DNA of 64,000 bases from Antedon mediterranea (lineage: Eukaryota; Animalia; Echinodermata), in the NCBI RefSeq assembly GCF_964355755.1, contig NC_092678.1, positions 14,658,371 through 14,722,370 of the forward strand, read 5' to 3'. The position numbers and the translations under genes are program-made. The notes under the pieces are model-generated. The model worked only from the letters and a program-made list of their open reading frames with translations. It was not told the origin of the DNA and made no database searches. Positions 10,043-48,648 of this stretch are shown here, piece after piece (within the stretch, counting starts at the first letter, position 1; each line of letters begins with the position of its first letter).

Positions 10043-10127
10043 CAAAACAATACAGCAGTATATGTTTTAGAAAATAATACGCTGATGGACCAAACAGAAA
10101 AAATCAGAATATTAGAGTATTTTGACA
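10043..10127 (+). CDS. Putative upstream exon of the Roco gene (possible last, degenerate ankyrin repeat)
   Basis: ctttgtttatAG|CAA...GAC A|GTAAGT encodes QNNTAVYVLENNTLMDQTEKIRILEYFD. Its phase-1 end fits the phase-1 start of exon 20043. An in-frame ATG is at 10085. Confidence 0.55.
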
Positions 10128-10154
10128 GTAAGTTAATACAAAGTTTATTTGATT

Positions 10155-10197
<43 letters not shown>

Positions 10198-13100
10198 TTA
10201 ATAATTTATTAATTTTCTGTCATAAACAATACAAAGAAGACAGAGCAATTATAAAAGGGGGCAAGGAAAGACCAAACATATGCTAAACACTTATGCTAGT
10301 TGGTCAACCCAGAACATACAGAGCACAGAAATAAATAAATAATATAAGGTTCTGCAATTAAAGCACCTACAAGAAAGCAACCAACTACACACATTTTCAA
10401 TATCAAAATTATTTAAAAAGTAAATATTAAGATAATTTAATAATTTGACCGTTCGTTGGTGGCGTTTAAATGTCCAAGTGCTTTTAAAAAACCTACGATT
10501 AATAATCAGTTTTTTAAAATACTTTGAATTTAAGTTCGATATTAGAAACATAATGGAGTAAGCCGTTGTGTCTTCTGAGTATACTTCTGCCTAAATCGTT
10601 TTAATTAGATACCTTTGATAGTACTTTGAGTTGTAAATCTACGTAGCCCATATTCAACAACAGTTTGATCAAACAGCCAAAAAAACGGTGAAGGGAAGTC
10701 ATCGATTGGTGAAACAATTGTTTACACGAGCAACCTATAGCAACAAAAGATTAGAGCCTAGCTTTACTTGTGTACGGACGCTTCACGCTCTAGTAAATTT
10801 TCTATGTCTTTGAAACCGCTTGTTGCGATAGAGACAGCAAAACAACCTAGGTATTTGTCAAAGACGATGACATTCGGAGCAAAAGAATGTAAAAAAGAAG
10901 ACATATATTTTGCATTGAGAGACGTAATCAATTTTGATAACCTAATTGGTACTCAAAAAGTGAAAAACCTTTGAAGGATCTATATAAATGATCACGGAGA
11001 AAGAGTCAAAGTAATAACTTCTGGGCTCAACATAAAGAAAAGCAAGTACGTTTTATGATTTAAACCCATACATCAACGCAGATGAGAACTTGATAAGAGT
11101 TCTAGTGAAAGACTTTACTTTATCAGTCAGAAATGAGGAGATAACTAACGCCTTAAAAAAAATTAGGATGTAAGATCATTGGAGAGACACAACTAATTAA
11201 ATTCAGAATACAAGGAAAACTATCCCGTTTCCTGAACAGGGATCGTGCTATATTCGTAGAGCGCTTCCAAGGAAGCTTTGCAAGATTCATTAAAGTGAAT
11301 AATTTCAGTGCTAGGCTCTTTCACAAAGACCAGACATTCGAAATTACATGTTTCAAATGCGGTCTAACTGGGCATAAAATCAATGAATGCCCGAAAAAGA
11401 TGGACAGTATAATCTGTCACAAATGCAATATGTCAGGCAACTTTGCAAAAAATTGTAAAAGTGATGTATATGTAAGCCTACCACACAAAGTCGTTATGAA
11501 CTCTACAAATACATTACCAAAGCTTACAACGAATATAACTGAGTGGATTAATAATGAGGAAGAATACCCGCACGAAGCAATGAAAATAGAAGTAGGAATG
11601 GAAGAGGAAGAGCAAGTCGAAGTGGACATAGAAGAGGAAGATGAAGAAGAGGAAGAAAAGTTATTAGACATCATTGAAGAAGAGAATAAACAAGATAAGC
11701 AACAAGCAACGTCATAGTAGTTCTAGAAAAACTACTTAACAAACCAGTTATGCCAACAAATAAGCCCGAATTGATAAAATTAGATGTAAAGGTTCAGCAA
11801 ATTATGAAGGAAGCCATAGACAGAGTGAAAACGATAAATCAGAAAGATAATGAAAAAAGGCAACCACAAGACCAAAAGAATGAAAAGAAGAAGCAAAGAA
11901 AACGAGATAAAAAAAAAGCAAGCAATGTTGAGCAGACAAATAAAGCTGTTGAGAGAGCAAGTAGTATAAGCAAGGGTATGAGACCAATTACATAATATGT
12001 ATTTCGCAACTACTAGCAAAACAGATGCCTCTAATACCAAAGCGATAGTTGCTAGAGAGCAGTTTGCATCCAGCAAATGGAAAAGCTTACTGGAAGTGGT
12101 GAAAACAATTTTGAAAAGAGAGATAGAACATCTGATTCAGTAAGTTAAATTAATTGTTCTTGCTTCAACTGTCAACTCAGTAAATTTAATATAATTATTA
12201 CTACATACTACAGATGTTCACGAGATAGTAGAGGAACAAAATAAATACTATGAACATCTGTATTCAAAAAAAGTTCTAACAGAAAATGAAATAAATAACT
12301 ATTTACAAAATACTACAGTTAAAAAACTCTCTGAGAAAGTTAAAATAGAATGTGAAGGAATATTAACAGAAGTAGAACTAAAAAAAGCAATATCTAACAT
12401 GAAGTTGAATAAAAGTCCGGGTTCTGATGGACTAAGTTTCGAATTCTATTGTCATTTTTGGGAATATCTAAAAGATATTTTGTGTAATTCTTTAAATTAC
12501 AGTTATAACAATAATAGTTTAAGTAACTCACAGAGGTTAGGTGAAATGAATATTTTATTTAAGAGTGGATAGAGAGAGTGTCTCGAAAACAGGAGACCAA
12601 TTACATTGTTAAATGCAGATTACAAAATAATGGCACATGCTCTTTCAAACAGACTAAAAAAAGTATTAGGGTCTATTATTAGTAATGATCAAAAAGGATA
12701 TATTAATGGGAGATTTGGAGGAGAAAATATTAGACTGGTCGAAGATGTGTTGTCTTATACGAAAAAAAAGCAAATACCAGGAGCCATGATTTTTCTTGAC
12801 TTTGCTAAGGTTTTCGACACAATAGATAGAAAACTAATGTTAAATGCACGTTCTAAAAAAAGTGGTTTTGGTTTATCTTTTGTACATTGGATAAATGTAA
12901 TATACACAGTCACTAGATGTATGGTTAAACATAACGGATGGGTTTCAAACAGTTTTAATATGGAATGTGGAGTACGTCAAGGTTGTCCATTGTCTGCACT
13001 ATAATTTACTGTTGCAGTAGAGGTAATGGCAATAAATATAAGGAATAATCCATTTTGTAAGGAAATTGATTTACCTGAGAATAAAGATATTGATAATATT

Positions 13101-14878: not shown

Positions 14879-14972
<94 letters not shown>

Positions 14973-15205
14973 TTTTGTCTTTATCGTTTCAAATTAATTA
15001 ATTAAATTTCAGTATATAACCGGGTGGTTTAGAATTAATGTTCTTTGCCTGATTTGTTATATATATATATATATACAGCCTGTATATATATATACAAGCC
15101 TGTAGAGACCAAACTGTAGTTTTTACTTCTTTTCCAGACTTAACGTATATTTTAGCTCTACTTTACCGTATTGAGCACTTTCTAGACGGTTACATTGAAC
15201 CGAAC

Positions 15206-15283
<78 letters not shown>

Positions 15284-16218: not shown

Positions 16219-16249
<31 letters not shown>

Positions 16250-19200: not shown

Positions 19201-22200
19201 AATTTCTTAAATTATCATTACAAAAACTAACATTTTTTGCATAAAGATAATTATAAGGAGGAAGATAAAAACTTTCGATAAAATAATTTAACGTATACAA
19301 TATACATTATATATAAAATTGTACTGTAAACATATTTAAAAAGAAATTATCTACAATGCAGCCTTTAGATGTTTCCATTTCTTGTCTGCTTTTATATAAT
19401 TTAACACATTATTCGTTTGAAATTAAGGCTTTTAATTCAAACGTGAATAAATTCCATGTCACATTTTTGTTTCTCTCTTATTTTCTATTTTCTAATATGC
19501 ATGATTTGTAATACAGAAAGGTGAATAGTAAAATCAGTTCATTTACAATTATGTTTTTGTGTACCTGTTATAATGTTTGACCAATTAATACCTTCTGTAG
19601 AAGAAACATTGTGAGATTGTGAGATCATTAAATTTAAAATATATTTTGAATGTATGTACATACATGTGACAGTTCAACATTGTTCTTCTAAAGTGAGTAG
19701 ACGAATATCAAAAGGATATAAAATCGAGTGGTATACACTTCAATTTATCAGAGTCTAACCTAAAAGTATTTTAACTCAACTTAATGTTAACGTTTTTACA
19801 ATTGACCTAAAGTTAATCACTATGACCATCTTCACATATTTGCTTTATGAGTGTTGTTTTTTTTTTCTTTTCCCATATAATAGTATATCTATTTTTTTTT
19901 CTACTCTTAGATAAACGCTGTGTGGAACATTTATTATACTTGCGTTATACAGTATTTGAAACATGTTTCTTTCAATGTTTAACATAAGACCATGACTTGA
20001 AATTTAAAGAAAAAATGCATTTTTTTATCATTTTACAAACAGAGCTATTAGTTCCTCCAGAAATATTTGCCATGGGTAAAACGGCTATCAAAATATATAA
20101 AGATGAACTTAAAGATGGTAACATTTCAGTTGTGAATTCAAGATGTATGTTTCTTGGGAAGGAAGGTGCTGGTAAGACTAGCTGTGTAAAGGTCATGCTT
20201 GGTGAAAGGTAACTAATAGTACAACATGTTTTTTAACCTAACTAAACTATAACAAAATTAGCAATGCAACTAAGTATTTACACTAGTTGACAGATTTTAT
20301 TTGACATTTTTAGAAGATGATACTGAGGATTCTTGTAATGGCAACATTTGAAACATTTCTGTTTGAAATAATTCAAGTTCATTAAAATATTTCATAAAAT
20401 TTATGCATATATCAAAACTGAGTAGTACGAATACAAATTGTCTATGAATTAATTAATACCAATAATCTAAGCCTTAAACGAGACTTACAACTTGAAGTGT
20501 GATTGTCATCATCATCACTTTCCTAATTGAAAGTGATCACATGAGAGATACAGCGCATGTGTAGCTTCTATATATAAATGATGGTTAATTCTGACATAAG
20601 CGAGCACAATGCAAAAACTTCGGTATAAATCTCCGCCTTGGATATCTACTTTATCTAGCTTAGATGTACCGCAAAACGTAGATTTGATAACAGTAGTTTT
20701 CAGTACTACGCTATTGTTCCAATTTTGTCTTTAACAACGACAAAATTTAGCGTTACCTAGCAAAATTTGTGGATATCAAAGGGTTATTTTCACACACTCG
20801 CGCTGTTGTTCAACTGGCTTCCGGGTACGTCAGAATTAATAAGATTGCTAACTCAATGATAATGACACGTCCATCACCAAACAACAAGCACAACTAAAAC
20901 GGAGTCAGATGGTGGGCACGTAATGCCTTTGTGTAAAGCTAGCACAAATCCCAATCGAACTCCAATTTCCCAAAAACTCAAAACTCAACAAACTTTAAAT
21001 TACTATCAAAGTAGATAGGCCAATACTCGAATACTCAATTAAAGCTTCAGCGTAAATAACAACACTTTATCTTTGACCCATAAAAATAGATAAACAGCAA
21101 GTGAAAATATGTGAGATATTCTTTATTGATATACTTATAAAACCTAAATTATTTCAATTTTTCTATTTTTTCCTAAGATAGCTTGCAAAATGCAAAAACT
21201 TTTTTTTAAAGAATACCTATCTCACTGATGATAGGCCTATATTTATTTGAAATCCGATAAAACCCCGTTAGCCAAATGGTAGCCGAGTTGTTGAGTTAAA
21301 CAGGTCTGTAACACCGCACTATGTCTGTACCGATAATACCCGGAATGATTCGGCCCATGTTGCAAGCCGTTTAAAACGCCTTTCTGAACGGGCCCTCTGT
21401 CGCGGATGTCAATGTGTCAATGGTTAGAAAAGTAAACAACATATGAGCGACACATTGACTAATGAAATTTGAAATGCATTTTTAAACAAACCGTCCGGTT
21501 TCCATAGTATATTGCTATGTCCATGGGCCAGTTGACATTCACCGAAATGAGAACAATAGGCAGTTTCCAAAACCCGAATGCACACAATAGCCCGAAGGCA
21601 CCAATATCCTGAAGGCAAATAAGTTCGAAGGCAAACATTAGGCTCGAAGGCAAACATAAGGTCCGAAGGCAAACATAAGGCCAGGAGGAAGATCCGAAGG
21701 CAAAAATAAAGCCCGAAGGCAAACAAAAGGCCCGAAGGTACACATAAGCACTGAAGGCAAACATTAGGCCCGAATACATAGACCGTCATTGCCTGTAGGT
21801 TCTTAACATACTTACTTGTACCTTGTAATTTTCTCTGCGTGTAGAATAGGCTGTCGGACGCTACGTGCGTACCGATACATTCGTGAAGACCGGCCATTTG
21901 AAGAATGCCTATTGATCTGTACACCATCGGAGTGAATATGTGACCAGTCATTCCACAGACCTCTGTGACGCCAATATGTTGGGAAAATTGAATGTATGTT
22001 ACGCTCTTCCCACTCTCGCGTTTCATTCTCTAATACTTGGTTTCTACTAGAGACGCAACACAAGGATTTGACCAATCACAAGCGATTTATTATTCTGTGT
22101 CACGTCATTTGTCAACAGCATGATGTCGTATTATATTAATTAAACTTATTCTAATTGTCGATGTAAGCAAACATAATAGAGGGCGTTATTTACGATATTT

Positions 22201-25200
22201 AATGTGAATGGGGTCTCTCCGATGTCTTTTTTTTTATCAAGTGCAACGCGACTCTACAGCTCACTATGTTGGTCGGTTGGTCGGTTGGTCGGTCGGTCGG
22301 TTGGTTAGTCGGTAAATACTAACTTAAGCACGCGTCTGCAGCCATGTATATGGCATTGTTTTTGTAATATATGGGGTTCTGTTTGTATATTTGGTTGGAA
22401 TAAACATTTGTGCAAAATTTGATGTATGCATATAGATTCAGTTAATTCTTCCTATTTGGTTCCTATATTAATGTTACCAAACATAATAAATCTATGCTAT
22501 TGTCAGTTTATTGTACTATAGTCATTATGATGTTTGCAGATTTGTAGTACAAAAACGTAAACAGTAAAACGAAGAAAAACATTATGATCCGATTCGCCAA
22601 GTTAGGCAATCTACCTGGAATATAAGTGTGTTACATTATGATAACACTGATATACAGGATATATGTAACATTCCTCTTACTACACGTCACGTGATTATTA
22701 TAATTTCTACTAATGAATATGCAGTGATTAAAGTGTCCGTTGATTATAATAAAAGTATCTGGTAAAGGAATTTCAATTTCGTTTAGGGCATTTCCTAACA
22801 TAAAAAAGACAATAAATACAGACTTGGGGCAAGTCTACTGCCTTATTTGCGCGGTTTTAGTGCGGAACATACACAGTAAACACAATGACATGAAAAAACC
22901 ATATGTGTAAATAGTATAGTATGGTTGAATGGTTTTTTAATAATAATTTCGGAAAAACCAGTAGAGGTGATCGATTTGATTGACACTGTTCGGGTGGCAA
23001 TATCAATCATTTACATATACCTAGTCCACCTTCTCCGTTTATCCCTGATTGATCATTTATATCACCCCTACAAAATTGTAAACATTCAAAGGTCCCGTTC
23101 TCGCCACCACGCCTATACTGTGAACCATGTTTCAGTGTCTGTGACAGTAGGCATGTATTCAATAAGCCTGTTCTGATCCAAAATAATAACAAACTATACA
23201 CAAGTTGCCATACATCCAGGTAATGTATAACAAGTCCATTTGATTAGGATTTTTACCTTTATTTAATTTGTTAAACAGTAAAAAAATACTAATATGGCTG
23301 CTAAATTTACAATGAAATGTTTATTTATTAGATTTAATTCAAAAGAAGAATCTACAGATGGTATCGTTACGACTACAGTGTTTCATGTTAAAAATGATTT
23401 CAGCAAGTGGAAAAAGAAAACAAAAGTAGATGGTGAGAAATATCAGAAACACTCGAAATTAATAATCAAAACATCGTTTATTTTTTGCACCAATGTAAAA
23501 GTAATCATAAATGGATACCAAGGGATAAACCTCACATGTAGTGAAATGCAATACCACTACATTTATCTGTATAATGCAATGATATCCTTCTCTCCTTCGA
23601 TCTACTCGTCAATATTAAATATACTCTGTACACTTGCTCATTATTCATATCTATAACTTTATTAAGGTCCTGAGACTTATAACATTCATGTTCTCTTTCC
23701 TACCACCTTTATGACCATATTTTTCTGCCTATTATGCCTTTTTTCAGATGTTGAGCTTGCCAAGAAAATACGTGATCAGGCATTAGTAGAAAAAGTTAAT
23801 AAAAGTTTAAATAAAGGTAGGGATAGAGAACCCACTTCTAGATAAATAGCTTATTTAAAAAAAATATCACAAAATATAATTTTCCCTCTCCCCACCTTCC
23901 TCCAAAAATATATTTTTATTTCTTTTTGTGTTTAAATTAATTTTTGTTTTAAGAAGCTTTTTTTGTATTAATTAATATGACACTATAATAACAATAATAG
24001 TAATATTCACATATTTTGCAAACAAAATTCAGTATTTAGCAATATTATAAATAAACAGTAATTAGGCCTATATTATTGTTTTTACCATTGCACGAATATA
24101 AAACATTCATAATAATAATAATATTTTATAACATACCTACTATGAATTATTTCAACCAAACATCATCCAAGGCCTAGCTAGCCTAGGCTAGTGTAGAAAG
24201 GCCGATTAGTGATATGAAAAATTAATGAAATAATCAAGACTAATTCTGGTGCGGTATTTTTTTAAACGATTGCAAGTCTTGTATAATTGCTCCCATGAAT
24301 AAATCAAAATGTTATCGATCTAAAGATAATTTAAGTTCATTTTTGTCTAAAGTAGTACATATTGCTTTCCAAAAATGTTATTTCCGAGTGTTAGTGTTAG
24401 TTGTTGAATGTTATTGCTCATATGCCAAAAAAACAAGAACAAATAATAGGAAAAAGAAAACAAAAGTAGACGGTGAGAAATATCAGAAACACTCTAAAGA
24501 ATAAACTTCACATGTAGTAAAATGCAATTCCACTAGCTTTATCTGTAGAATGCAATGGTCAAATAATAGTAGAAATAATAGGCGATACTATTGAATTTGC
24601 GCCGTATTCGAAGATACAATTAATTGGCCTTTTTTTTTTTTGCTTTTTTTTTCATACTCAAAAGAAAACTCATGCACATTGATTAAACTGTCTGTACCCA
24701 CGATCATCAAATCAAAAGACAACAATTTTTATCTGAACAGAAACTATAGTGACCTGTGTCAAATTATTGTCAAATCAAATTATTTATTAGTTGATACTGA
24801 AATTTAGTTTGTACACAATTACACCAATATTAACTCTTAACGATATAATTAAGTAAAATAGAATAACACTGATGTCATTCTAGCGTTATGTACATATAAT
24901 TGAATTGTTAATACAGTAATACAATAGAGCTATAAAGGGCTATACAAATTCAGAAATTATCCAAATATTCCTTATTTAGCTCATTCACTATATTTTTCAA
25001 CCACAGGACCCATGAAAAATGTCAGAAAAGTTGTATCTTGGTTAAAAAGAAATGATGAAAGCGTTCAAAATGACATAACTAGCATATGGGATTACGCTGG
25101 TCAACTGGACTATTACATAACGCACAGGGTAAGTTTTCTTTCTTTCATATCAGGACTCATAGAAAAATATACAGAAGTTACTTTAGAATTTTTAACGAGA

Positions 25201-28200
25201 ATCGGAGCAACAACACTGATTCAGTTGTTGAAATTAATGGTCAACTTTCCGAAGGAGATAACAAAAATATATTTCCCGAGAAAAACCAATAGGCTAGGCA
25301 ATCTATTTAAAAAAAACAGCCCAGAGTGAAACAAATTGCAAACATGGAATTTTCTTTTTTAAATGGATCAACATTCGAGCATCACACCTCTGTCACTCAT
25401 CCCGATGATATGCAAATTAGCTTAACTATGCAAATTAGGGTGAACATACGATGTTATCATATCTCAAAAACTATTAGTCCCAGAGAGTTGATTTTTATAC
25501 GGATTTATTCAAAATATATATATTTATATTTACTCTAATGAAACATTTTACGAAAAAATGACCGTAAGTACAACATTTGACCTTCGACCACAATTCTCAA
25601 TGTTTGCATACACAATGTGACTAAAATGTCTATAGAGACTTTATTTTGTCCTTAAATGACCCAGACATAGGTTCCTAATAGCCAGCATAGGACCACTTTG
25701 TAATTCTCAAAATCACACCTTTGTCATACACCTCGAAAGTATGCAAATTAGTAGTACAATTTAAATAAAATATGCAAATAAGGGGGAAAATTACAGTTGT
25801 CCTATATTTCGAAAACCACTATGCTAGAGAGTTGATTTTTTCACAGCCGTATTAAGAATGTACATAATATGTATAATATAATATGAAATATTTATTTCTA
25901 TTTGCTCAAATGAAACATTTTACACAAACATTGACCAGAAGTATGACATTTGACTCTCGACCCCATTTCTCAATATTGCATATATAATGAAACTAAAATG
26001 TCTGTAGAGACGTTGTTTTGCCTTCAAATGACTTGGATGTTTTTAATAGCCAACAGACTGTTTAGTGAATTTTAAAATCACACCTGTATCACTCACCTTC
26101 AAAGTATGCAAATTATTAGTACAAGTTACATGAAATATGCAAATTAGGGAGTAACATTACAGTCTTCCCATATCTAGCAAACGATTAATGCTAGAGAGTT
26201 GATTTTTCAAAGCCTTATTCAGAATGTACATATTTATATTTTTCGCTCTAATAAAACATTTTACGAAAAAATGATCGAAAGTATGACATTTGACCCTCGA
26301 CTCAATTTCTCTATATTTGCATATAATGCAACTAAAATGTATGTACAGACATTGTTTTGGTCGCAAATGACTTGGATACAAGTTTTATATAGCCAGTATA
26401 GGACCGTTTAGTAATTCCAAAAGTCAAACACCTCAAAAGTATGAACATTAGTTGTACAAGTTATATGAAATGTGCAAATTACAGTGAATTGCCTTATGCA
26501 TGTCGAAATGACCGATAAAGATATGGCAACTTTCACCCCTTGTTCTACTAATTTGCATACTTTCGAAGAGGAGTAACAAAGGTGTGATTTTGAGAATTAC
26601 TAAGCAGTTCTATGCTGGCTATAGAACACCTGTATCTGAGTCATTTGAGGTCAACACAAAGTCTGTGAAGACATTTTAGTTGCATTATATATTGATAAAT
26701 AGGGTCGAGGGTCAAATGTCATAATTCCGACAATTTTTTTTAAAAATGAACTCTCTAGCATTAATTGTTTTCGAAATATGGGAAGACTTTCACCCCCTAA
26801 TTTGCATATTTTATGTAACTTGCACTAATAATTAGCATACTCGAGGTGTGTGACAAAGATATGATTTTGGGAATTACAAAGCGGTCATACAGTATGCTGA
26901 CTATAGGAAACTATACCCGAGTTATTTGAGTCCAAAACAAAGTCTCTACAGACATTTTAGTCGCATTATGTATGCAAACAATGATAAATGGGGTCGAGGG
27001 TCAATTGTTGTATTTCCTGTCATATTTTCGTAAAATATTTCATTAGAGCAAATATAAATTTGCACATTCTGAACAAGTTTTGGAAAAATCAACTCTCTAG
27101 CCTTAGCGGTTTCAATAGTAATTTGTAATTTCACGCCCCTAATTTGCATATTTCATGTAACTTGTACTAATAATTTGCATACTTTGATATGATTTTGAGA
27201 TTTACTAAACAGTCCTATGTTGGCTATTAGAAAACTGTGTCCGAGTCATTTGAGGGCAAAACAAAGTCTCTACAAACATTTTAATTTCATTATATATTCA
27301 TAGTTGAGAAATGGGGTCGGGGGTCAAATGTCATACTTCTGGTCAATTCTTTTTTTTAATGTTTCATTAGAGCAAATAGAAATATGTAGTAATTTTTGAA
27401 TGATATGGTAACCTTGTAATTTCACCCTAATTTGCATATTTAAGCTAATTTGCATATCATCGGGACGAGTGACAGAGGTGTGATGCTCAAATTTTAATCT
27501 CCTCATTATATGTCACCATTTTCAAAAACAAAATCTCTGTTTGCAATTTGTTTCACTCAAAATGATAGATTACCTAGCCTACAAGGCAGGTTGGCGCACA
27601 ACAATCTTTGGATAAAATAATTTCTCCAGAAAACTACGATTACGTAAAAAAAAAGGCAAGGCTAAAAAAAAATTAAACCTAAATGTTTCTGCACTCCATC
27701 TAAAAACCATTGCTCAGCTTTAGAAAAGATGTTCAGGTTAATGAGGAGGATGTACAAAACTACGTGTCTGGTCGATATCATCGTGACAATCTCGCAAAAT
27801 CAGAGAAAAATTAAACTCGTTGATGATGATACATGTTCTGCAACTGTCGCTATGGACATCACATTCTATTCATTATAAAAAAAAAAGCGGGATAATTTTT
27901 TGTTTGCCCTCTAATACATCGTCTCACTTCACTTATAAAAACAAAAGCCTATGTAGGCAAAATCGTTTTATTTTATATTTATTATATTCTGATAATTCAT
28001 TAATAAATAATTATCATTACTTGCAATTTATCAATGTAGTTCTAAGTAAGATTATACTCAATTATATATATATTTGTTTTTTCCAGTTTTTTCTTACAAA
28101 TAGGGTATCGTACTGTGTTGCCTTTAATGTGATGGATAAATTGAATGACCCAGCTACTCCACGAAATTCTCCAATAGTGAGTTCAACACAATTATACTTT

Positions 28201-31200
28201 GTCAAAATGCAAATGTTTGACTTCTTAGGCCTATATTTTAACTGATTTTTACTATTTATTTTTATATTTTAGGGTTCGCTAGGAATGACTAATATGGACA
28301 TGAATTTGTTCTGGATAAGGTCCATTTATGAACATACTGTATACCGAAATGGTTCAGGAAACTCAATATTAATTGATGGAAAAGTTATAGTGTTACCTCC
28401 CATCAGTTTGGTTGCTACCCATATGGACGAATTGACAGGGAATAAATCAGAAAAGGAAGATGAGGTAATAGCTTCAGAATACATCTGTAAACATTACATT
28501 TAGTTTTAAGAAATTGCTAAAAAAGGTTTATATCTGGATAGAGATGAAAACATTTTAAAAACAATGTAGAGATAAAATGACAAAGTATAAAATTCAAAAT
28601 AAAGAGAGGGAAGTCATGATCTGACGTTTGCTTGTTATAAAAATACCATTTTACTAATTTTAGGCAAAGAAGATGTTCATAGAAATGTTTGATGAAATAA
28701 AGAAAATGCCATACGCCGAGCATGTAGATCGTGAAATGTACATGGTTGATAACACAGTAAAATCAAATGAAGGTATTACAAAGTTAAAAAGAAACGTTGG
28801 TAGATACATGAAAACAATGGTTGATGAAGTTCCATTAAAGTGGGTTACCATGCAGGAAAAGTTGCATGAAAAAGGAAAAACAAGTTTGTGTATTTCATTT
28901 ACTGAGGTAAAGGTTTTCAATTAACAGAAATAAAAACGTATTTTGTTTTTGTCTTGTACATGCATATAAATTTATATTTGTGAAAGATAATGTAATGTGA
29001 CTCACATGTCATTGATTTGCTTCTGGTCTGTTTCTCTGTGTCTGGTATTTTTTCAGAGTTAGCACTGTGAATTATAATTCAATTACCAATGGTGCGTTAG
29101 TTTTACTCGATTTTTTATATGCTCTTATAAAGTATAGATACTTTGTCAGTAAATTTAGCATAAAACCAATTTATTTTATTTTATATTATTAGGCTTATAA
29201 GATTGGCACTGAATGTGGAATTTCTGAAGAGACGATCGCCACTGTCATTACATATCTGAACGACATTGGAAAGATTATGTATTCCAGTACTGATGAGAAA
29301 TTAAGAAACACTGTCATAACTAATCTTCACGTAATGATTAAGATGCTGAAGAAAGTGATCACAGTATTTACACCACTTATTAATGATGTAGGTAGACAAT
29401 GGTACTATTACACTCTTTTATTGATACAAAACACGAATTTAATGTGGATGAACTACGGTATAATACTGTACATATTGTTTTTTAAACTTACATCCATAGT
29501 TGATATTAATTCAACATATTTGTATGGCATTGTTTTATCGTTGAACAAAACGTACATTATTTAACGTTTTAATTGTACACAGAAGCCAATGAGGACACAA
29601 TGGTATACGTTTACGAACGACGGCATTATTGGGGAGAAGTTATTGTGCTTTTTATGGCAAAATCAAGACGCAAGTGACTTTGACGGTCCTAACCTGGCAG
29701 ATGTATTCATAAAAGAATATCACTTTGAAATTCTTATAGATGTCATGAAGATGTTTCGGCTGCTCTTTGAGATGAAATCTGTAAGCTCATAGCACATATG
29801 TGCCTTAATATATATTGATTATAAACATTTTTCCAGCATAAAGTGTAATTGTCTATAAAATCAACTATGTTTATAATAACAGAGAGATGAAGGCGGTAAT
29901 CGGCAATTCTTGGTTCCCTGTAAGATGAAAAATGAAAATGAGAGTTTAAAAGTCACAAAAGATGACAAGCAGATGGTATCAGTCTACCTTACTCCGACAG
30001 ACTTTCTTCCTGATGCTGTGTACCACACACTGGTGGTTGCATTTCTTGAATTGATGACCGAAACAGATAGTGAAGTATTCAGGAACCGTAGTGATTTTAA
30101 CTTTGAAGGACACAGAGTCAGTTTAGGTATCGTACAAATTAAGCGTGACGATGAAAAACCACGCGCAATAAAGGTATGATATTAATTGTGTTTGTAAATG
30201 TTTAGATAGATTAGTGTTAAAGAGTCGCTATATAATCGAGTTTGAACAATACCACAAATACCTCCAGTGGTACAATCGTTAGGACATCTGCATATCAAGC
30301 GGAAGGTTCCGGGTTCGAATCTCGATTGGGGTGATGTTTTCTCATTCTAACATATTTCGTCATCTTATCAGATTTTTTATTATTTTATATAATTTATTCG
30401 AAGTATAATAGTATCTTTTCTGTATATAAATTTGGTATTTATAATCTGAAATTGCATAAAGCATATGCATAGGCTTAAATAATATGATTTTTTATAACCT
30501 ACTTACAACTTTATTTTGTTGATTATCATATGAGTTGAATTACCTAATTAGTTTTAATGTTTCTTATAAGCTTGAAATATATCGTCGGACAATACGGGGT
30601 GACAACACAGAAGAGGTGTTACCACTACAAAAAAGTGTCTGCATGAAGGTAACCAATGCATCTGTAATCAATTGACTTTTTTACAATTTTAAACAAGATG
30701 TTTACGTAGGCATAGAATACTAAAATATACGCTACGTTTTTGCTGTAGGTATTAGATTACTTGAGGGACCAATTAAAAAGTGTTTGCAACATATACCATG
30801 GCATTGGCTATAATCTACGTGTGTCATGCGGTGCGTGTGATCCAAAGAACCATCACTTAGTTGACCTTGAAAAGTGTTTGAAGAAAGATACAGTTCCATG
30901 TGGAACCGATACGTCTATGAATACAGCTCATATCAAGCGATATTTTTCTACAGGTAAGTTTTTTTATCCATTCGTCCTTCGTCAATTTAATTACTTCATC
31001 TTAATTAAATCTTCATCTTTGTAATCATCATTATTCGTCATTAACAATGATAAATACATATACTACAACATTATTTTATCTCAACTATTCTCGGACCTTC
31101 TGACGACGTCTGACAGAAGAGTTCAAATCATGTTTCAGTTATGAATGTATTCAACATCAAATATTCTTGAAACTATCGGTTTTAATTTTAATTATTACAG

Positions 31201-34200
31201 ATCTGATATATTTCATTGATAGTTTAAAAATAAAACAGCTACCATTTTCTGAATTTATTATTCGAAAACTAAAGATACTTGTTCTTTCAGCAAATTAGTG
31301 TACAGTATTAGCTTTATTGCTATAGTGATTACAGCTAGACTTCTTCACTCACATATGTTGTCCATGAGGGCTAATCTACATTTCATTTATAAGCCGTTAG
31401 ATAACTGAAATAATAGTATTGTAATTATTGAAATTCAATATTCAATACAAATATTACAAATAATTACTATACAAAAGTTATACAAACATTATAAAATATT
31501 ATTGGTAAATGTCCTCAGTTATACTATGTAAAAAGTTTTTTACATAGTTTTACATTTTTCGGTGATTGCTACAAAACAAATGTTGCGTGGACTGTTATAT
31601 TTTTTAGGGCATAGGCCTACTATAAATGAAATCAGTCTTTTTTATTTTTAAGCAAATAAAAGACACATTGCTTCTAATTTTCCTATTTTTTGGTAAAATT
31701 AAAACACAGTGAAAATCACTAATTAACATAAATGAGGGATGAACGAATCCTCTGTGATCCAATATGGCTCTTGAAAATAGTGTAGCTGCTCCTGTTGAAT
31801 ACTATATCGTCCAGTAGGCCTATTATGTCTAGAGACAATAAACAGCACCTGTATTTTACTTGTCTGCTACTACCTTTCCATTGCATAGGTACTTGTGCCC
31901 TGGGTCGTCGCAAATGTAAAACCCATTCATGTCTCTGAACATGACATGATACGGGGTAATATCATTTTCCTACAATAAAGCTTGTTAATTTGATTCCCCC
32001 GTTTTTAATTTTTTGAAACATACAGTAATTCCTATTATTATTTTTTCTCGATCTGTTACAAATAATACTATACATTTTATCTTTGTGGGCATATCTAATA
32101 TACTACAGTAGTGTAAACTAGCTTCGAAAGTTAAAATTTCCACTACTTTACCAAAATACTAACATTTCTTTTTTCCCCATTTTTTTCGATCTTTTCAACC
32201 CAATTATTTTTTTGGCATTTCTTGTTATCATAACCATAAAAAAATACAAAAGAATGTACAGGGTCATCAACAAACTGTATTCCAAATTGTTTACAAACAT
32301 AACGTTTTGAAGATAAACATTCTTTTGATTTTCATTTTTGGTTGAAAATGTATTATATATTATATATAACCTGCAAACTTAATTTAAATAAGTTTCAATC
32401 GGCCTACTTGTTTTTATCTACAGCCAAAAGTATGAGCAATGTTAACCTACTGTTGCTTCTTAGTACATTTATAGCCATTTCCTTGTATAATACCAATATT
32501 CTTACAAAATCCTTTCTAATGATCCATCATTCGTTGTAATCGATAGTCTCAACCCATTGTATTGGTTCCTAACTAAACCAAATGTCAATTTATTTATTAA
32601 AACTATCTATGTATTCTAGTAAAAGTAAAAGTCTTGTTTTCGCCAGCGAAGCTTCCTTTAATATAACATTTCTGATCAGTATCTTTTACGTCACCAACTA
32701 TTAATTCTAATTTATTAGCAATAGCATTATCGGTCTCCTGCTTTTTAAAACTGGTTTTACCATGTTTGCACATCAAGAGATTATTCCTCTGTTGTTCCTT
32801 TGTTCCTTTGAAAACTGATAATTTACATATATTAAAATAACAATTAAATGCATTACATAGGGTATCAATGGAATTCCAAAACGTTTGATAAACCATCACT
32901 GCCTGAAGCCTTATTGGATTTCATTTCAAACGTGTTTTACATTCATCAATGTTTAGAATCCCTTCACATATTGCCTTGTTCTTCTGATAAGGCGCTGACT
33001 TTAGTATTATTTAGTAGGTAACTTAAAATACCTAAAATTGTGGTTCAGATCATTATAATTTATAATCATTATAATGTAACCAGATGAATCTGGAGTTTCT
33101 ATTTTGTATGGAAAAATGTATTGTATTGTTGTTTATGTTACAGGTGTTGTTGTGGCATCCAGTTCAACTACAGGTATGTTGTATTTATTATGGTATTGGT
33201 TTAGATTAAGTTAATATTAATTAAACTGTACAACTTTCTTCATTAAGCAACTAAAAGACACATTTAATTTTCTTATTATTTGAGGTAAAATCACTGATTA
33301 ACATAAATCGAGAGATGAAAAAATCCTCTGCGATCCAATCTGGCTCTTGAAAATAATAATAATAAATAATATATTTATATAGGATAAAACAATCAAATAA
33401 CAGTGTATCTGTTTTACATTGTGGTCCTGTTTTAAGCAAAATATACAAAAGAGAAACTTAATTAAATATAATACAGTGTTTATGAAAAAAAATGAGATTT
33501 ATATCTAGCCTTAAAGGAAGTAATTGTTGGTGCCGATTTAATATTAATTGGTAAACTGTTCCATATTTTTTACTAAGGGTGTATTTAGGTATTGTTACAT
33601 TCAAATGTTCTACTCCACGTGTTGAGTGGGTGTGAATATCGCGAATCAATTCAATTTCATTTACTAATCTAATTGGTGCAAGGATGTAAACACATTTATA
33701 CATTAGACATGCTAGGGAGAAATCTCGTTTCTCTTCAAGAGTTTGCCACGATAGGTTCTGGATGATGTTGTCACCCCTTACATTAATATAATCGAAGTTG
33801 TTAGTTACAATTCGAGCAGCTCTTTTTTTATGTCGCTTTAAAATATTTTTGTTTAACTCTGTCGTATTTCCCCAGACTGTTATAGCATAATCACTACAAG
33901 GCTGAATTGTACTTATATAAGAGTTTCTAGTAACGGTTTACTTAAACTACTAGCCATTTGGATCAGCATATGTTGAATTTCAATGATATATTATATAATT
34001 ATCAAAATCCATTGTTATTAACATAGTAATTATATGAAAGTGGTCAAACATAGCTACTGAAACAGAACCAAGTTTTGAATGTTGGACACAGTGGTTGATT
34101 TTGGACCCTGTTACTTGTTTTATTAACCGTCCTAATTATTGAGGAGATCCCAGATTAGGCTGTAATTAATAATAATAATACTCTTTATTTCATATTCAAA

Positions 34201-36124
34201 TGTACATATACAGCATTAAAGATACAAAGCTCTTTAACTAATATACATAATTACATAATAAAACAATACACTAATAATACAAAAGCCCATGGACCACAAA
34301 CCACCACAAATCATTATAATTACTGCCTTATTGAGATCTGTTAAAGATATTGGTCAGAGGTCGGATTCGATTGACTTGGGGATTGACTTTAGGAATAGTT
34401 ACTATGTTTCAGCTTTCCATTCGCTATTATTTATATTACTATAGTTGCTACTGATGCTGATGTTACTCCAGCTACACCAAATGAACCAACCTCAATGCCA
34501 GGTTAGTTGATTGTTTATTTTGTCCAACTCATCCAATGTTTCTAGTTTCAGTTTGAATTGTAGGCTATACAATTTTTCCTTTTTGTCTTAACATCAATAA
34601 AACAAATATCATTTAAAATGAACAGGGGTAGATCTATGATTTTTTTAAAGGAGAGCTACATATAATATTATAGTAGTTCATAATTTCATTTTTAGCTGTA
34701 AAAAGGAGGGAGCTTGCCCTAAGTACAACGCACTAGATCCACCCCTGTTAATAATTGACAATAGGGACCTACATATTTTTGTAAATTACATTAAGGCAAG
34801 GTTTACAATTGGAAGGCAATGGGTTTTGAAAAACATTCATTTTTAACTAATAACAAATATAATGTCAATACAGCCTTGTAGAATAACATCAAATAATGGT
34901 AAAACAAGCTATCGTGTTTAAAGAAAGTTATAGTAATAATAATAATATTCATACTATTAGATCAACAAACGAAATTCTCTACCAAATCACATAAAATCTG
35001 AACTTCATAATTAGTCCTTTACTACTTTCAAATCTTCACTTTGGCAAATATATATTATATATACCTAACTTTTTCTTACCTTTATCCGCATTTTTCTTTT
35101 TAATTTTTATATGTGTTACTATGTTGTATTCACTGAACCACCACTTTGTAAATCAGTAAATTTGAATTGAAAGTATATTTCAGTTTAAAGAAAGAACAAA
35201 TAAATAAATGTCAAATATCAATCATCAGGACATAAGGATATACTATATACAAAAAAGAATATTAGAATATAAAATAAATAAATCCACATAATAATGGTAC
35301 AGTTTCGACTCTTTAACACATAATGATATTATTATTAATAAAGCGTATTATTACTATTATTAGAATTGAATGATGACGATTACAATGAACTGCTCACCGA
35401 TGTATCTACTTGGTGGAAGAAACGTGGAAACATTCACATGCTGAGAGTGTTACTTAGTGAGTTCACGAATCGTGATACAACCATTACTTTGAAAAAAATA
35501 GAGAGTGAAAGTACACCATATCATCTGCTTGGTCTACTTGAGGGTCCTGGACTTCTCAAACCGGCAGACATTGGTATCCTCATTGAAGCTACTAATATAT
35601 GCGGACTTCAGGGAGTTCAAGACGTGATTGCAAAAATTGTAAAATTACAGAACTTCAAATGCATTCCATTCAAACATTTTTCTGAGCATCGAAGAAAATT
35701 GATAGCGTTTGGTCAGCAATTGAATACAGAGAACATGGTAACTATTGGCCGCCTTAAAGGCATTAAGGAGGTCAACAAATACACAGATCCGTTTTGGTTA
35801 ATCTTGAAACTGGAAATGAAAGGCACACTTGCAGAAGGAGAAAAGATGGAGAAATTCATTACACTGCTTACAGATAGAAAGATGACGAAAGAAGTGGATG
35901 CATTGACAACACTAAAAGGTGAAACAAAGCAGTATAAGCCCATTCACAAATTCAGCAGAAATGTGTTTGTAGTAGAATGGTTTGAGGGAATTGAAAACAA
36001 TTATGATAAAAGGTTATTATGATGTTATATTTATCAGCATGGATATTGTAACTACTGTACTAAAATACTTTCTTTATAGATGAACAATCAAGAAGTGAAG
36101 CTGGACCATCAAGTAATACAGAAA
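10043..36124 (+). CDS. Multi-exon Roco-family gene: (ankyrin?)-Roc-COR-linker micro-exons-tandem DED
   Basis: Exons 10043-10127, 20043-20208, 23332-23432, 23748-23816, 25007-25128, 28087-28176, 28273-28464, 28664-28906, 29193-29387, 29583-29780, 29883-30173, 30571-30648, 30749-30953, 33144-33173, 34445-34501 and 35364-35918 (or reading through to the stop at 36022), with an optional 36080-36124. All junctions are GT-AG and phase-compatible with no stops (2781 nt if ending at 36022). Confidence 0.85.
10153..10200. repeat. (TTTA)n microsatellite
   Basis: Visible tandem TTTA run. Confidence 0.9.
10660..14680 (+). mobile_element. Decayed L1/Tx1-clade LINE (ORF1 plus ORF2, endonuclease deleted), inside the Roco intron
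   Basis: ORF1 has zinc knuckles CFKCGLTGHKINEC and CHKCNMSGNFAKNC. ORF2 pieces include KSPGSDG, RPITLLNADYKI, FLDFAKVFD, GVRQGCPLS, ADD and the C-terminal CDRC..EEHMLLKC. Many stops and frameshifts; AATAAA at ~14670. Confidence 0.9.
14883..15280. repeat. (TA)n microsatellite runs with inserted repeat tails
   Basis: (TA)n at 14883-14970, ~15058-15093 and 15209-15280. 14978-15060 is the 3' tail of the 6264-6500 repeat. Confidence 0.9.
15281..16222 (-). mobile_element. Penelope-like (Neptune-type) element, 3' fragment with GIY-YIG and 3' UTR
   Basis: ORF 15672-16103 has CGKSCKTC, NVIYLIYCNICGKQYVGET..LRMRMTQH and PFGLN. Flanked on both sides by (TA)n. Confidence 0.9.
15409..15445 (-). ncRNA. 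Minimal hammerhead ribozyme motif
   Basis: Minus strand GCA-CTGATGA-A-GGGC-TAGTGTT-GCCC-GAAA-GCTC-TGC: intact core, stem I, stem II, and a palindromic AGCT before UC. Confidence 0.8.
16249..18950 (-). mobile_element. Near full-length Penelope-like (Neptune-type) retroelement, frameshifted
   Basis: ORFs 18227-18952 (SVLSKGLTFIP, ADKGGATVVW), 17824-18318 (FYMLPKIHK, RPIVS, MDVTALYTSIP), 17105-17788 (GISMGTKMGP, RYIDD) and 16661-17053 (GIY-YIG NLVYCISC..YIGET..DRFVEH). Confidence 0.93.
16325..16367 (-). ncRNA. Minimal hammerhead ribozyme motif
   Basis: Minus strand TTTTCAC-CTGATGA-T-GGGC-TAT-GCCC-GAAA-CATG-TC-GTTAAAA, ~250 nt downstream of the GIY-YIG coding region. Confidence 0.8.
19000..19450 (-). 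mobile_element. Highly decayed LINE APE-endonuclease fragment
   Basis: LVGDFNNILD motif in ORF 18943-19164; the rest is poorly conserved. Confidence 0.35.
20043..20208 (+). CDS. Roco gene exon: Roc P-loop
   Basis: acAG|AG CTA...GAA AG|GTAACT encodes VPPEIFAMG...RCMFLGKEGAGKTSCVKVMLGE. Confidence 0.9.
20567..20730 (+). mobile_element. 5' portion of Helitron-like family B (copy 2)
   Basis: Starts TCTATATATAAA and aligns with 5874-6040. Confidence 0.5.
21573..21785. repeat. Minisatellite, ~11-12 units of 17-20 bp (consensus CCCGAAGGCAAACATAAGG)
   Basis: Visible tandem units. These explain the repetitive ORFs 21424-22026 and 21459-21779. Confidence 0.85.
22232..22360 (+). mobile_element. DINE-1/Helentron-like short element (copy 2)
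   Basis: Follows a T-run, has a (GGTC/GGTT)n array, and is the inverse match of 9845-9972. Confidence 0.6.
23332..23432 (+). CDS. Roco gene exon: switch I
   Basis: attAG|A TTT...GAT G|GTGAGA encodes RFNSKEESTDGIVTTTVF...W. The phase 2 start matches the previous exon. Confidence 0.88.
23748..23816 (+). CDS. Roco gene exon: Roc insertion helix
   Basis: ttttcAG|AT GTT...AAA G|GTAGGG encodes DVELAKKIRDQALVEKVNKSLNK; phase 1-1. Confidence 0.75.
24449..24557 (+). repeat. Orphan duplicate of the 3' end of exon 23332-23432 plus its donor site and intron start
   Basis: ggaaaaagaaaacaaaagtagacGGTGAGaaatatcagaaacactc matches 23409-23454, followed by a match to 23523-23581. Confidence 0.8.
25007..25128 (+). 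CDS. Roco gene exon: switch II
   Basis: cacAG|GA CCC...CAC AGG|GTAAGT encodes SIWDYAGQLDYYITHR, matching the Roc WDFAGQxxYYxTH motif. Confidence 0.92.
25290..27581. mobile_element. Foldback-type inverted-repeat element, copy 2 (complete termini)
   Basis: Termini TAGGCTAGGCAATCTAT...GAGTGAAACAAATTGCAAACA and TGTTTGCAATTTGTTTCACTC...ATAGATTACCTAGCCTA. Arms of ~1.1-1.2 kb built from subrepeats; CAA on both flanks; no coding sequence. Confidence 0.85.
28087..28176 (+). CDS. Roco gene exon (Roc)
   Basis: ttccAG|TTT...ATA|GTGAGT encodes FFLTNRVSYCVAFNV, continuing THR-FFLT. Confidence 0.9.
28273..28464 (+). CDS. Roco gene exon: G4 motif
   Basis: ttttAG|GGT...GAG|GTAATA encodes MNLFWIRSIYEH...PPISLVATHMD. 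Confidence 0.9.
28664..28906 (+). CDS. Roco gene exon: end of Roc / start of COR
   Basis: ttttAG|GCA...GAG|GTAAAG encodes YMVDNT..EGITKLK..EVPLKWVTMQEKL. Confidence 0.9.
29193..29387 (+). CDS. Roco gene exon: COR
   Basis: attAG|GCT...GAT|GTAGGT encodes ECGISE..TYLNDIGKIMY..LRNTVITN, like the COR LHxLG motif. Confidence 0.88.
29583..29780 (+). CDS. Roco gene exon: COR
   Basis: cacAG|AAG...TCT|GTAAGC encodes W..F.NDGII..KLL.FLW and LIDVMKMFRLL. Confidence 0.88.
29883..30173 (+). CDS. Roco gene exon: COR-B
   Basis: aacAG|AGA...AAG|GTATGA encodes FLVPCKM...FLPDAVYHTLVV..VFRN. Confidence 0.88.
30215..30370 (+). mobile_element. tRNA-containing repeat, second (more decayed) copy, intronic
   Basis: Same upstream flank gttaaagagtcgcta..aatcgagtttgaacaatac. 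tRNA-like body 30260-30333 with the same ATATCAA loop. Confidence 0.7.
30571..30648 (+). CDS. Roco gene exon
   Basis: ataAG|CTT...AAG|GTAACC encodes LEIYRRTI...VCMK. Its start is conserved at 47633 in the paralogue. Confidence 0.8.
30749..30953 (+). CDS. Roco gene exon: Cys/His-rich COR C-terminus
   Basis: tgtAG|GTA...ACA G|GTAAGT encodes VLDYLRDQL...CGACDPKNHH...VPCG. Confidence 0.85.
33144..33173 (+). CDS. 30-nt phase 1-1 linker micro-exon
   Basis: ttacAG|GT GTT GTT GTG GCA TCC AGT TCA ACT ACA G|GTATGT (GVVVASSSTT). Homologues with conserved splice sites at 48243 and 49413. Confidence 0.8.
33460..33955 (-). mobile_element. CR1/L2-group LINE ORF2 3' fragment
   Basis: Minus-strand translation pieces IQP..DYAITVWG, KRAARIVT, LSWQTLEEKR..LMYKC..LAP and HTHSTR. 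Confidence 0.75.
34445..34501 (+). CDS. 57-nt phase 1-1 Thr/Pro-rich linker exon
   Basis: ctatAG|TT GCT...CCA G|GTTAGT encodes VATDADVTPATPNEPTSMP. Confidence 0.7.
34623..34747. mobile_element. 125-bp hAT-type MITE
   Basis: TIRs CAGGGGTAGATCTA / TAGATCCACCCCTG. No clean 8-bp TSD. Confidence 0.6.
35364..36022 (+). CDS. Tandem death-effector-domain-like exon (ends at donor 35918|GT or at stop 36022)
   Basis: attAG|AA TTG (phase 1). Two helical repeats, YNELLTDVS...LLGLLEGPGLL...ILIE and FSEHRRKLIAFGQQLNTENM...WLILKLEMKG, resembling the caspase-8/FADD DED pattern. Confidence 0.75.
36080..36124 (+). CDS. 45-nt phase 1-1 linker exon
   Basis: tttatAG|AT GAA CAA TCA AGA AGT GAA GCT GGA CCA TCA AGT AAT ACA GAA A|GTATGT. 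Confidence 0.6.
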
Positions 36125-36724: not shown

Positions 36725-36769
36725 GTAAATGATCAAGAAGTGAAGCTGGACCATCAAGCAATGCAGAAA
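36725..36769 (+). pseudogene. Duplicate of the 45-nt linker exon with an in-frame TGA
   Basis: ttatAG|GT AAA TGA TCA AGA AGT GAA GCT GGA CCA...A|GTATGT. The upstream intron is also duplicated. Confidence 0.65.
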
Positions 36770-48606: not shown

Positions 48607-48648
48607 CATGATGATGACGATGATGATGATGACGATGATGACGATGAC
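48607..48648. repeat. (GAT/GAC)n trinucleotide microsatellite
   Basis: atgatgatgacgatgatgatgatgacg... Confidence 0.85.

Follow-up and report, generated by a model that had tools for sequence, protein, structure and literature searches.

A Roc-COR GTPase gene ending in a predicted tandem death-effector domain in Antedon mediterranea: a candidate NLR-like switch with a probable effector-module swap

Roco proteins combine a Roc G-domain with a COR domain. The Roco cycle alternates between a GTP-bound monomer and a GDP-bound or nucleotide-free dimer held through COR-B (PMC6337361). Among the Roco genes of Trichoplax, which number at least 17, CARD, death, TPR, and LRR domains occur, and TIR/Death Roco proteins are described from Aplysia and a sea anemone (PMC4104024, PMC9334734, and PMC5094078). 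The effectors of bacterial LRR-AP-GTPase-COR proteins are variable and number at least 24 (PMC8195603), and the death-fold effectors of NLRs are shuffled across the phylogeny (PMC3879445). A search of the literature on kinase-less Roco proteins with death folds, with known cases in Trichoplax and Aplysia, found no version with a tandem death-effector domain (tDED). What Roc-COR contributes when no kinase is attached is still unsettled, a point of relevance to LRRK2 and DAPK1.

The window is the whole 64,000-nucleotide stretch of A. mediterranea DNA analyzed here. Positions 10043-36124 hold 17 exons, all preceded by AG and followed by GT, with matching phases. The initial annotation had recognized this phase-compatible chain; its count of 16 exons was one short, and its end at 36124 was premature. 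The protein ends beyond that point in exon 18 at 36725, which adds the stop and gives 909 codons without an internal stop, close to the estimate of about 900 open codons. The domain order is Roc, COR, linker, and a single 185-codon tDED exon. The chain runs colinear with P0045 of A. mediterranea, at 59% over 734 columns and 840 bits, far beyond chance. The gene is real, as originally observed. The in-window chain is 5'-incomplete because it lacks a start codon and opens with an exon that, in paralogs, caps the ankyrin block. Intron 1 is full of retroelement debris. The exons are as follows.

10043..10127, + strand: exon 1, phase 0 to 1, AG/GT ends; matches the end of the paralogs' ankyrin block
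20043..20208, + strand: exon 2, start of Roc, holding the P-loop (G1); 82% to P0045
23332..23432, + strand: exon 3, switch I (G2) STDG
23748..23816, + strand: exon 4, Roc insert helix; 59-64% to clade-B paralogs
25007..25128, + strand: exon 5, switch II (G3) WDYAGQ; Pfam Roc E 0.092
28087..28176, + strand: exon 6, Roc
28273..28464, + strand: exon 7, Roc with G4 THMD
28664..28906, + strand: exon 8, Roc end and COR start; 73% to P0034
29193..29387, + strand: exon 9, COR-A; Pfam COR-A E 2.8e-6
29583..29780, + strand: exon 10, COR-A; most diverged core exon, 37-41% to paralogs
29883..30173, + strand: exon 11, COR-B; 14 A. mediterranea matches at 68-76%
30571..30648, + strand: exon 12, COR-B loop
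30749..30953, + strand: exon 13, COR-B end, phase 0 to 1; Pfam COR-B E 0.01; 72-81% to paralogs
33144..33173, + strand: exon 14, linker micro-exon of 30 nt, phase 1-1; final exon derived from clade B
34445..34501, + strand: exon 15, Pro/Thr linker of 57 nt, phase 1-1; flanked by splice joints in run X1
35364..35918, + strand: exon 16, symmetric (phase 1-1), predicted to hold the entire tandem DED
36080..36124, + strand: exon 17, 45-nt tail, phase 1-1; joint in X1; 15/15 residues identical to the P0001 tail
36725..36769, + strand: exon 18, copy of exon 17; in-frame stop at 36730-36732

Four G motifs are read from the sequence: G1 GKEGAGKT (20156-20179), G2 STDG (23351-23362), G3 WDYAGQ (25087-25104), and G4 THMD (28417-28428). 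All are identical to those of the paralogs, and the P-loop, switch I, switch II, and G4 named at the outset were thus all located; G5 was looked for in vain. Paralog P0045 matches Pfam Roc at E 2e-8 and COR-A at E 6.4e-17. A COR domain after Roc had also been proposed and is borne out by the COR-A (exon 9) and COR-B (exon 13) matches, colinear with P0045. On sequence grounds, the predicted protein qualifies as a Roco protein, with a G1-G4 Roc domain and COR directly behind it. The absence of kinase and LRR noted earlier holds: neither the model nor any of 14 clade-B relatives shows LRR, and none of the 14 has a kinase.

The four of these 14 relatives that have full N-termini begin with ankyrins. 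In alignments, exon 1 falls at the end of the ankyrin block of crinoid ANK-Roc-COR-tDED paralogs, at 43-50% to P0045 187-214 and P0034 109-134; the relatives are predicted models, and P0007 and P0034 are among those that look fused. From this match, ankyrins upstream of the window are likely the sensor, and a kinase is not expected. Among the 60 of 314 rows listed when P0045 was compared with solved structures, only ankyrin entries appear. An ankyrin profile built from 15 repeats found nothing above the reversed-sequence control in the six frames of the window, so this copy may have lost its sensor exons.

Exon 16 is predicted to fold as a tDED. Its AlphaFold2 model has a pLDDT of 95.1 and a pTM of 0.90, and superposes on the caspase-8 tDED with Z 16.6 and rmsd 3.1 over 168 aligned residues. 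In a search of 48,161 chains, the first nine rows are caspase-8, cFLIP, or vFLIP tDEDs (Z 16.6-12.3), and the next non-tDED row has Z 8.5. Death-domain structures score about 6 and cover half of the model. The rows listed by Foldseek belong to the same caspase-8/cFLIP/vFLIP class, none at E 0.001. The top three ESM Atlas clusters, taken as a lead only, are DED clusters, of which rank 2 is v-FLIP-like. The earlier description of two DED-like repeats is matched by two packed death-effector folds in this model, and a death-fold in the exon at 35364, which had been posed as a test, was thereby obtained as a prediction. Folding without an alignment gave a pLDDT of 47.5, and that model was discarded. 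Pfam on exon 16 alone gave no DED match. Sequence searches of solved structures found no DED with the single exon and none at E 0.01 with a profile; FADD appeared in a profile search, but only at E 0.34-2.2. With identity to caspase-8 of only 13-14%, these results suggest that the tDED binding surfaces may differ.

The most distinctive feature of the gene, missed by the initial annotation and new in this analysis, is a probable swap of the effector module. In trees, the Roc-COR part is sister to P0036 in clade B (support 96/98; 100/100), and the tDED is sister to P0001 (100/98), a protein of a distant clade. Across tDED and tail, identity to the corresponding parts of P0001 is 91-100%, with exon 16 at 91% to its C-terminal tDED. 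AU tests reject congruence of Roc-COR and tDED (p 0.00028, 2e-28, 1.7e-69, and 3e-62); one of three swaps tested, P0073/P0083, is not significant (p 0.057). The gene is likely a mosaic, with a tDED brought in from another Roco lineage. DNA at 32976-33252 is 80% like 48068-48350 of a neighboring clade-B paralog, and this places the putative breakpoint as follows.

33253..34444, no strand assigned: inferred swap breakpoint interval; clade-B DNA likeness stops near 33252, and exon 15 onward belongs to the other lineage

Exon 15 shares an 8-residue identity with the P0003 linker that precedes a tDED, a match that is weak alone. The interval contains a high-copy repeat at about 33356-33960, with high summed depth in DNA runs and no Pfam match.

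Splice joints 14>15, 15>16, and 16>17 occur in contigs of run X1, presumed to be RNA, and are absent from three DNA runs. The X1 letters between joint sides also fit an exon 17 to 18 join that includes the stop. This transcript support comes from X1 as a single run whose RNA kind is a guess and whose contigs possibly derive from a near-identical paralog. The join of exons 13 and 14 (COR to linker) is absent among the X1 joints displayed, so the proposed splicing of COR to the exon at 35364 is upheld for the post-COR linker, 14>15>16, and not for 13>14. Over 19900-37700 in three runs, no splice joint of the model is among the 15 of 108 joints listed. Displayed RNA joints include none for any Roc exon, and exon 1 lies outside both stretches examined for joints. 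An assembly chimera at the exon 14/15 boundary and a pair of separate genes were both rejected because the spliced form is present in a run from another study. Read-through of exon 16 to a genomic stop at 36020 was also rejected, since the 35918 donor is used by both P0001 and X1. Summed depth over exon 16 in DNA runs is well above that of single-copy contigs; no copy number was taken from it.

Roc/COR with a tDED is found in 21 other retrieved proteins. The gene belongs to an expanded family that is already in RefSeq as uncharacterized models. Among 99 newly found tDED relatives, 18 have NACHT, 9 have Roc or COR, 5 have TIR, and one each has a caspase, RIG-I, Rel, or kinase partner. At least 46 of the 99 match Pfam DED at E 1e-4 or better, and all 30 that were looked up are crinoid. 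In the tDED tree, the caspase-8-like tDEDs sit in other subclades than that of this gene; the tDEDs of a TIR-tDED adaptor and a kinase-tDED protein share its subclade. Crinoid proteins of these types are represented by XP_033126911 (caspase-8-like), XP_033113606 (TIR-tDED), and XP_033124929 (kinase-tDED). Two further related segments lie downstream in the window.

37338..37531, + strand: remnant of a second tDED exon, internally deleted, downstream of the stop; 70% to P0005 917-943
45074..50502, + strand: broken tandem paralog with clade-B COR exons and its own unrelated tDED

The start of the remnant resembles the P0005 tDED start in another frame. The broken paralog has an inversion at about 45201-47022 and a frameshift in its tDED exon between 50279 and 50306; its exons 12-13 were not found.

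The gene can be read, with modest confidence, as working like an NLR, as a trigger switch for immunity or cell death. Ankyrin repeats, placed upstream on the evidence of paralogs, would sense a cue. The monomer-dimer cycle of Roc-COR, as known from Roco biochemistry, would bring two tDEDs together, and the pair would seed a DED assembly. The clustered tDEDs could recruit another tDED protein, which the family's company suggests may be the TIR-tDED adaptor, the kinase-tDED protein, or a caspase-8-like protein, with cell death or NF-kB-type signaling as the output. The initial annotation had proposed such a sensor-switch-effector protein. Its architecture stands for Roc-COR and tDED; the sensor is missing from the window and would be ankyrins, as in paralogs, and the role is an interpretation. 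The analogy is strengthened by the same tDED family on NACHT, TIR, RIG-I, and caspase-8-like proteins. A tentative and less probable extension is a crinoid plug-in immune network, where a symmetric phase-1 tDED cassette has moved among Roc-COR GTPases, NACHT-LRR receptors, RIG-I, TIR adaptors, a kinase, Rel, and caspase-8. ANK-Roc-COR-tDED proteins would then form a second, GTP-driven NLR-like receptor class, and this gene would be a recent rewiring between two related species.

The tDED might instead inhibit, capping DED filaments as cFLIP and vFLIP do, or it might be bait for the effectors of pathogens; Roc-COR would then govern how it is exposed. The tDEDs of cFLIP and vFLIP are close structural matches too (Z 12.3-14.0), the second Atlas cluster is v-FLIP-like, and fast swapping of effector-like modules also fits the turnover of bait. 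This is nevertheless unlikely; the same module sits at the effector position in 18 NACHT proteins and a RIG-I-like protein, and in known systems a death fold at that position activates. Were the protein a Roco scaffold outside immunity, serving membrane traffic, autophagy, or the cytoskeleton, the tDED would be only a docking module. LRRK2, DAPK1, and MFHAS1 in part act so, and members of the tDED family are found joined to ENTH, UCH, ubiquitin, and ZU5 domains as well. Against this, most annotated tDED partners are immune domains, and immune families typically show lineage-specific expansion, decay, and module swapping. Roles of the scaffold kind are known in characterized animal Roco proteins (PMC6337361, PMC4104024), and for this gene such a role is the least probable of the readings.

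Less likely than an inhibitor, and likelier than a scaffold, is a recent chimera without a selected role, which arose when members of a birth-and-death cluster recombined ectopically and which is now decaying. The adjoining paralog is broken by inversion and frameshift, of the last tDED exon a remnant is left, and a stop in exon 18 stands where P0001 reads on. No ankyrin exon is seen within 10 kb upstream, intron 1 holds the retroelement debris, and no relative among 43 candidates exceeds 76% for exon 11. However, 17 of 17 exons keep frame and splice sites over 26 kb with G1-G4 intact, and the spliced form is present in a second sample, from another study.

If the NLR-like reading is true, the proposal that Roco proteins can be immune receptors, until now drawn from bacteria and brown algae, extends to a deuterostome, and effector-exon swapping becomes a way of rewiring innate signaling. 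Swapping a symmetric phase-1 tDED exon block would connect a sensor to a new downstream partner. A natural Roc-COR-tDED fusion also gives the switch a direct read-out: should clustering of the tDED depend on nucleotide state, a simple death-fold reporter would be enough to test the dimer-switch model. If the gene is non-immune, it nonetheless offers a clear example of recent exon shuffling within an uncharacterized family.

The kinase-less invertebrate Roco proteins share with this gene a Roc-COR tandem without kinase; repeats and either death-fold or TIR domains flank the tandem, and the proteins occur in expanded sets. CARD, death, and TIR are named for them in the available parts of the sources and DED is not, whereas here a predicted tandem DED occupies one symmetric exon. 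For the crinoid gene, clade-to-clade module exchange was tested by trees.

DAPK1, a group 3 Roco protein, is similar in having ankyrins (as the crinoid paralogs do), Roc-COR, and a C-terminal death-fold domain. Its N-terminal CaMK-type kinase is absent from the window and the 14 clade-B relatives. DAPK1 has a single C-terminal Death domain, whereas the crinoid gene has a tandem DED and belongs to a multicopy, shuffled family. The crinoid gene was rejected as a DAPK1 ortholog.

NLRs resemble the gene in their sensor-switch-effector logic, as proposed here, and in effector shuffling (PMC3879445); the tDED family of this gene is also found on crinoid NACHT proteins. NLRs use a STAND ATPase ring and LRR, whereas the crinoid gene would use a GTPase dimer switch without LRR and in reversed order, with the effector C-terminal. 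NLR membership was rejected because the NTPase is a Roc GTPase rather than NACHT and LRR is in neither the model nor the 14 relatives. The tDEDs of caspase-8, cFLIP, and vFLIP share the predicted fold at 12-17% identity; the crinoid tDED has no caspase domain and is attached to a GTPase.

Bacterial LRR-AP-GTPase-COR proteins also have a repeat-GTPase-COR core, a variable C-terminal effector, and several paralogs per genome (PMC8195603). They possess LRR and enzyme effectors, whereas the crinoid gene is animal and intron-rich, with probable ankyrins and a predicted death-fold adaptor. The brown-algal ROCO candidate immune receptors are likewise expanded kinase-less Roc-COR genes with exon shuffling (PMC11378527). 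There, the LRR sensor exons shuffle; in the crinoid gene, it is the effector exon that does.

The window is animal DNA, AT-rich and rich in introns, and its closest protein relatives belong to two feather stars, Antedon mediterranea and Anneissia japonica. In the sequence-based model, 17 plus-strand exons span 10043-36124, each preceded by AG and followed by GT with matching phases. Exon 18, at 36725, supplies the stop, which lies 37 bases 5' of that exon's donor site. The directly established chain has 909 codons with no internal stop and no start codon; the initial annotation was right about ~900 open codons but counted 16 exons. The motifs GKEGAGKT (G1), STDG (G2), WDYAGQ (G3), and THMD (G4) are all intact and identical in paralogues, as had been read earlier for the P-loop, switch I, switch II, and G4. 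Pfam searches of single exons recovered COR-A (E 2.8e-6) and COR-B (E 0.01), establishing the COR directly, and Roc at E 0.092; exon 16 returned no DED match. The Roc-COR aligns along its full length to P0045, an A. mediterranea ankyrin-Roc-COR paralogue (59% over 734 columns), and also to the predicted relatives P0034 and P0043. The gene encodes a true Roco protein.

Exon 1 aligns to the end of the ankyrin block in P0045 and P0034. A search with exon 11 identified 14 relatives among 43 candidates, of which four begin with ankyrins and the remaining ones are N-terminally partial. None of the 14 carries a kinase or LRR, and the description "kinase-less" holds for the family. No ankyrin exons were found in the window with a profile built from the relatives' repeats. 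From these alignments, ankyrins are likely the part missing from the model; the sensor exons either precede the window or have been lost. P0034, an A. mediterranea model, joins two Roc-COR units from different clades in one chain, either genuinely or as an artefact of fused prediction.

Exon 16 (35364-35918) gave an uninformative model when folded without an alignment. With an alignment of 54 relatives, the model is composed only of helices (pLDDT 95.1, pTM 0.90). Compared with 48,161 solved chains, its top nine rows are the tandem DEDs of caspase-8, cFLIP, and vFLIP (Z 16.6 to 12.3), followed by the FADD DED (Z 8.5); the best match has an rmsd of 3.1 over 168 residues at 14% identity. Foldseek listed the same class (best E 0.016), and the top three ESM Atlas clusters are DED clusters, a lead only. 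The model matches solved tandem DEDs, so the initially raised possibility that this exon does not fold as a death-fold was not borne out. Exon 16 is predicted to be a tandem DED (tDED).

The two halves of the gene have different closest relatives. Exons 1-14 match best to clade B, a Roc-COR lineage, whereas exons 16 and 17 match best to P0001 (91% and 100%), whose own Roc-COR belongs to a distant clade; the window tDED is ~25% identical to clade-B tDEDs. These relatives are predicted models, some possibly fused. In a tree of 23 tDEDs, the window joins P0001-P0004 (99/99), and the AU test rejects placing it with six clade-B tDEDs (p 0.00028). The Roc-COR tree kept 28 of 45 rows (at least 390 residues; crinoid and three mollusc) and places the window inside clade B (100), rejecting a grouping with P0001, P0005, and P0006 (p 2e-28). 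Among 17 two-module proteins, the window's sister is P0036 for Roc-COR (96/98) and P0001 for the tDED (100/98, path 0.085). AU tests on these 17 used pairs chosen after seeing the trees: window with P0036 is rejected for the tDED (p 1.7e-69), window with P0001 for Roc-COR (p 3e-62), and P0101 with P0082 at p 3e-5, while P0073 with P0083 is not rejected (p 0.057). DNA likeness to a neighbouring clade-B paralogue extends over exon 14 and the intron that follows exon 13 and stops near 33252, which puts the breakpoint 5' of 34445. Phase 1-1 is common to exons 14-17, so such blocks can move in frame. By sequence comparison, the gene is a mosaic of a clade-B Roc-COR and a tDED and tail of the P0001 lineage, an ancestry established directly from these trees and tests.

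Five sequencing runs cover the locus stretch, none recorded as RNA. X1, whose kind is a guess, comes from a different study than X2-X5 and also contains intron contigs. Between 32900 and 36300, a single X1 contig (depth 36.6) holds the GT-AG joints 33173>34445 and 34501>35364, and the gene's own 14>15>16 joints therein cross the breakpoint. A further X1 joint is compatible with 35918>36080; none of the three occurs in X2, X4, or X5 over this stretch. At another X1 joint, the intervening letters agree with the exon 17>18 join, stop included. X1's exon-16 piece differs from the window at 3 of 415 bases, and this one-run support could come from a near-identical paralogue. By record coordinates the contig extends ~27 letters 5' of exon 14, and a 13>14 join would lie outside the displayed letters. 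The proposed splicing of COR to the 35364 exon is supported from exon 14 onward, the join from COR exon 13 not being among the joints displayed.

Our own profiles find both a Roc/COR stretch and a tDED in 22 of 147 proteins, one of them the model, with the tDED C-terminal in 21. Exon 16 matched 107 of 1.84 billion representatives, 99 of them newly domain-scanned and the others scanned before. The 99 include NACHT (18), Roc or COR (9), and TIR (5) proteins, and one each with a caspase, RIG-I helicase, Rel homology domain, kinase, and UCH; at least 46 have a Pfam DED. All 30 relatives looked up are from crinoids, including caspase-8-like and DDX58-like proteins. In a quick FastTree of 158 tDED stretches, to be read with care, Roc/COR-attached tDEDs are scattered. 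The window tDED belongs to a subclade of 29 rows (97), together with tDEDs that are C-terminal in TIR proteins and a kinase, and caspase-8-like tDEDs group among NACHT proteins, away from it.

The crinoid protein P0109, which is caspase-8-like, contains two tDED modules with four DEDs in all, and both modules group with NACHT-protein tDEDs in the quick tree. P0122 joins a tDED to a Rel homology domain. P0106 is a crinoid DDX58/RIG-I-like protein whose N-terminus bears this tDED, in the place that CARDs usually occupy in RIG-I-like proteins.

The surroundings contain the following features.
6801-7742 (-), decayed retroelement, in or before intron 1
10700-14230 (+), decayed retroelement, in or before intron 1
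15675-18955 (-), decayed retroelement, in or before intron 1
37338-37531, second tDED exon remnant, P0005 type, internally deleted, 3' of the stop
42843-44203 (-), fragmented element, integrase-core match (rva_4, E 4e-15)
45074-50502, tandem paralogue, broken: inversion (~45201-47022) that splits exon 9, frameshifted tDED exon, micro-exons 48243-48272 and 49413-49442
50780-51270, tandem repeat, three copies of a ~184-base unit, just 3' of the broken paralogue
56035-56826 (+), acidic open frame, 264 codons, no Pfam match

Intron 1 holds retroelement debris; one element of this region is LINE-like (zinc knuckle, RT, zf-RVT) and another contains pieces of RT and GIY-YIG. The frame at 6.8-7.7 kb looks similar and has no useful Pfam match. 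The paralogue lacks exons 12-13 and has an unrelated tDED of its own, and its pieces resemble A. mediterranea P0035, P0038, and P0096 at 84-98%. The locus is a birth-and-death setting. A copy of exon 3's 3' end and donor site lies inside intron 4 (24450-24520).

FADD-caspase-8 recruitment is the established model for DED clustering. By analogy, drawn also on portions of PMC8195603, the tDEDs would cluster and then recruit a tDED partner. Upstream of this, ankyrin repeats would sense a cue and Roc-COR would run a monomer-dimer cycle, as parts of PMC6337361 and PMC4104024 propose for Roco proteins. An activating, NLR-like switch is, on this analogy, the somewhat favored reading. A FLIP-like inhibitor or decoy is unlikely; cFLIP and vFLIP stand with caspase-8 among the structural matches. 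A decaying chimera, set beside the broken neighbor and the gene's own open frame, is slightly less probable again, and a non-immune scaffold is the least expected.

The gene is neither an NLR nor a DAPK1. Sections of earlier papers describe kinase-less Roco proteins bearing a CARD, death, or TIR domain in Trichoplax (PMC4104024), Aplysia (PMC9334734), and sea anemones (PMC5094078). Excerpts also report an annelid caspase with a ROC pro-domain (PMC11463336), varying effectors in bacterial LRR-AP-GTPase-COR proteins (PMC8195603), shuffled LRR exons in brown-algal ROCOs and up to forty domain combinations in animal ones (PMC11378527), and effector shuffling in NLRs (PMC3879445). Lancelet dispensable genes are enriched for death and DED domains in the relevant portion of PMC12373286, which mentions neither Roc nor COR. 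Full-text literature searches, covering few subscription papers and no supplements or figures, found no paper on Roc-COR with a tandem DED or on a crinoid tDED expansion; Figure 2 of PMC11378527 and the PMC8195603 source data may include architectures of this kind. The surprise is lowered because the architecture is already in RefSeq as uncharacterised models, and raised by the swapping of the effector and the sharing of the tDED module.
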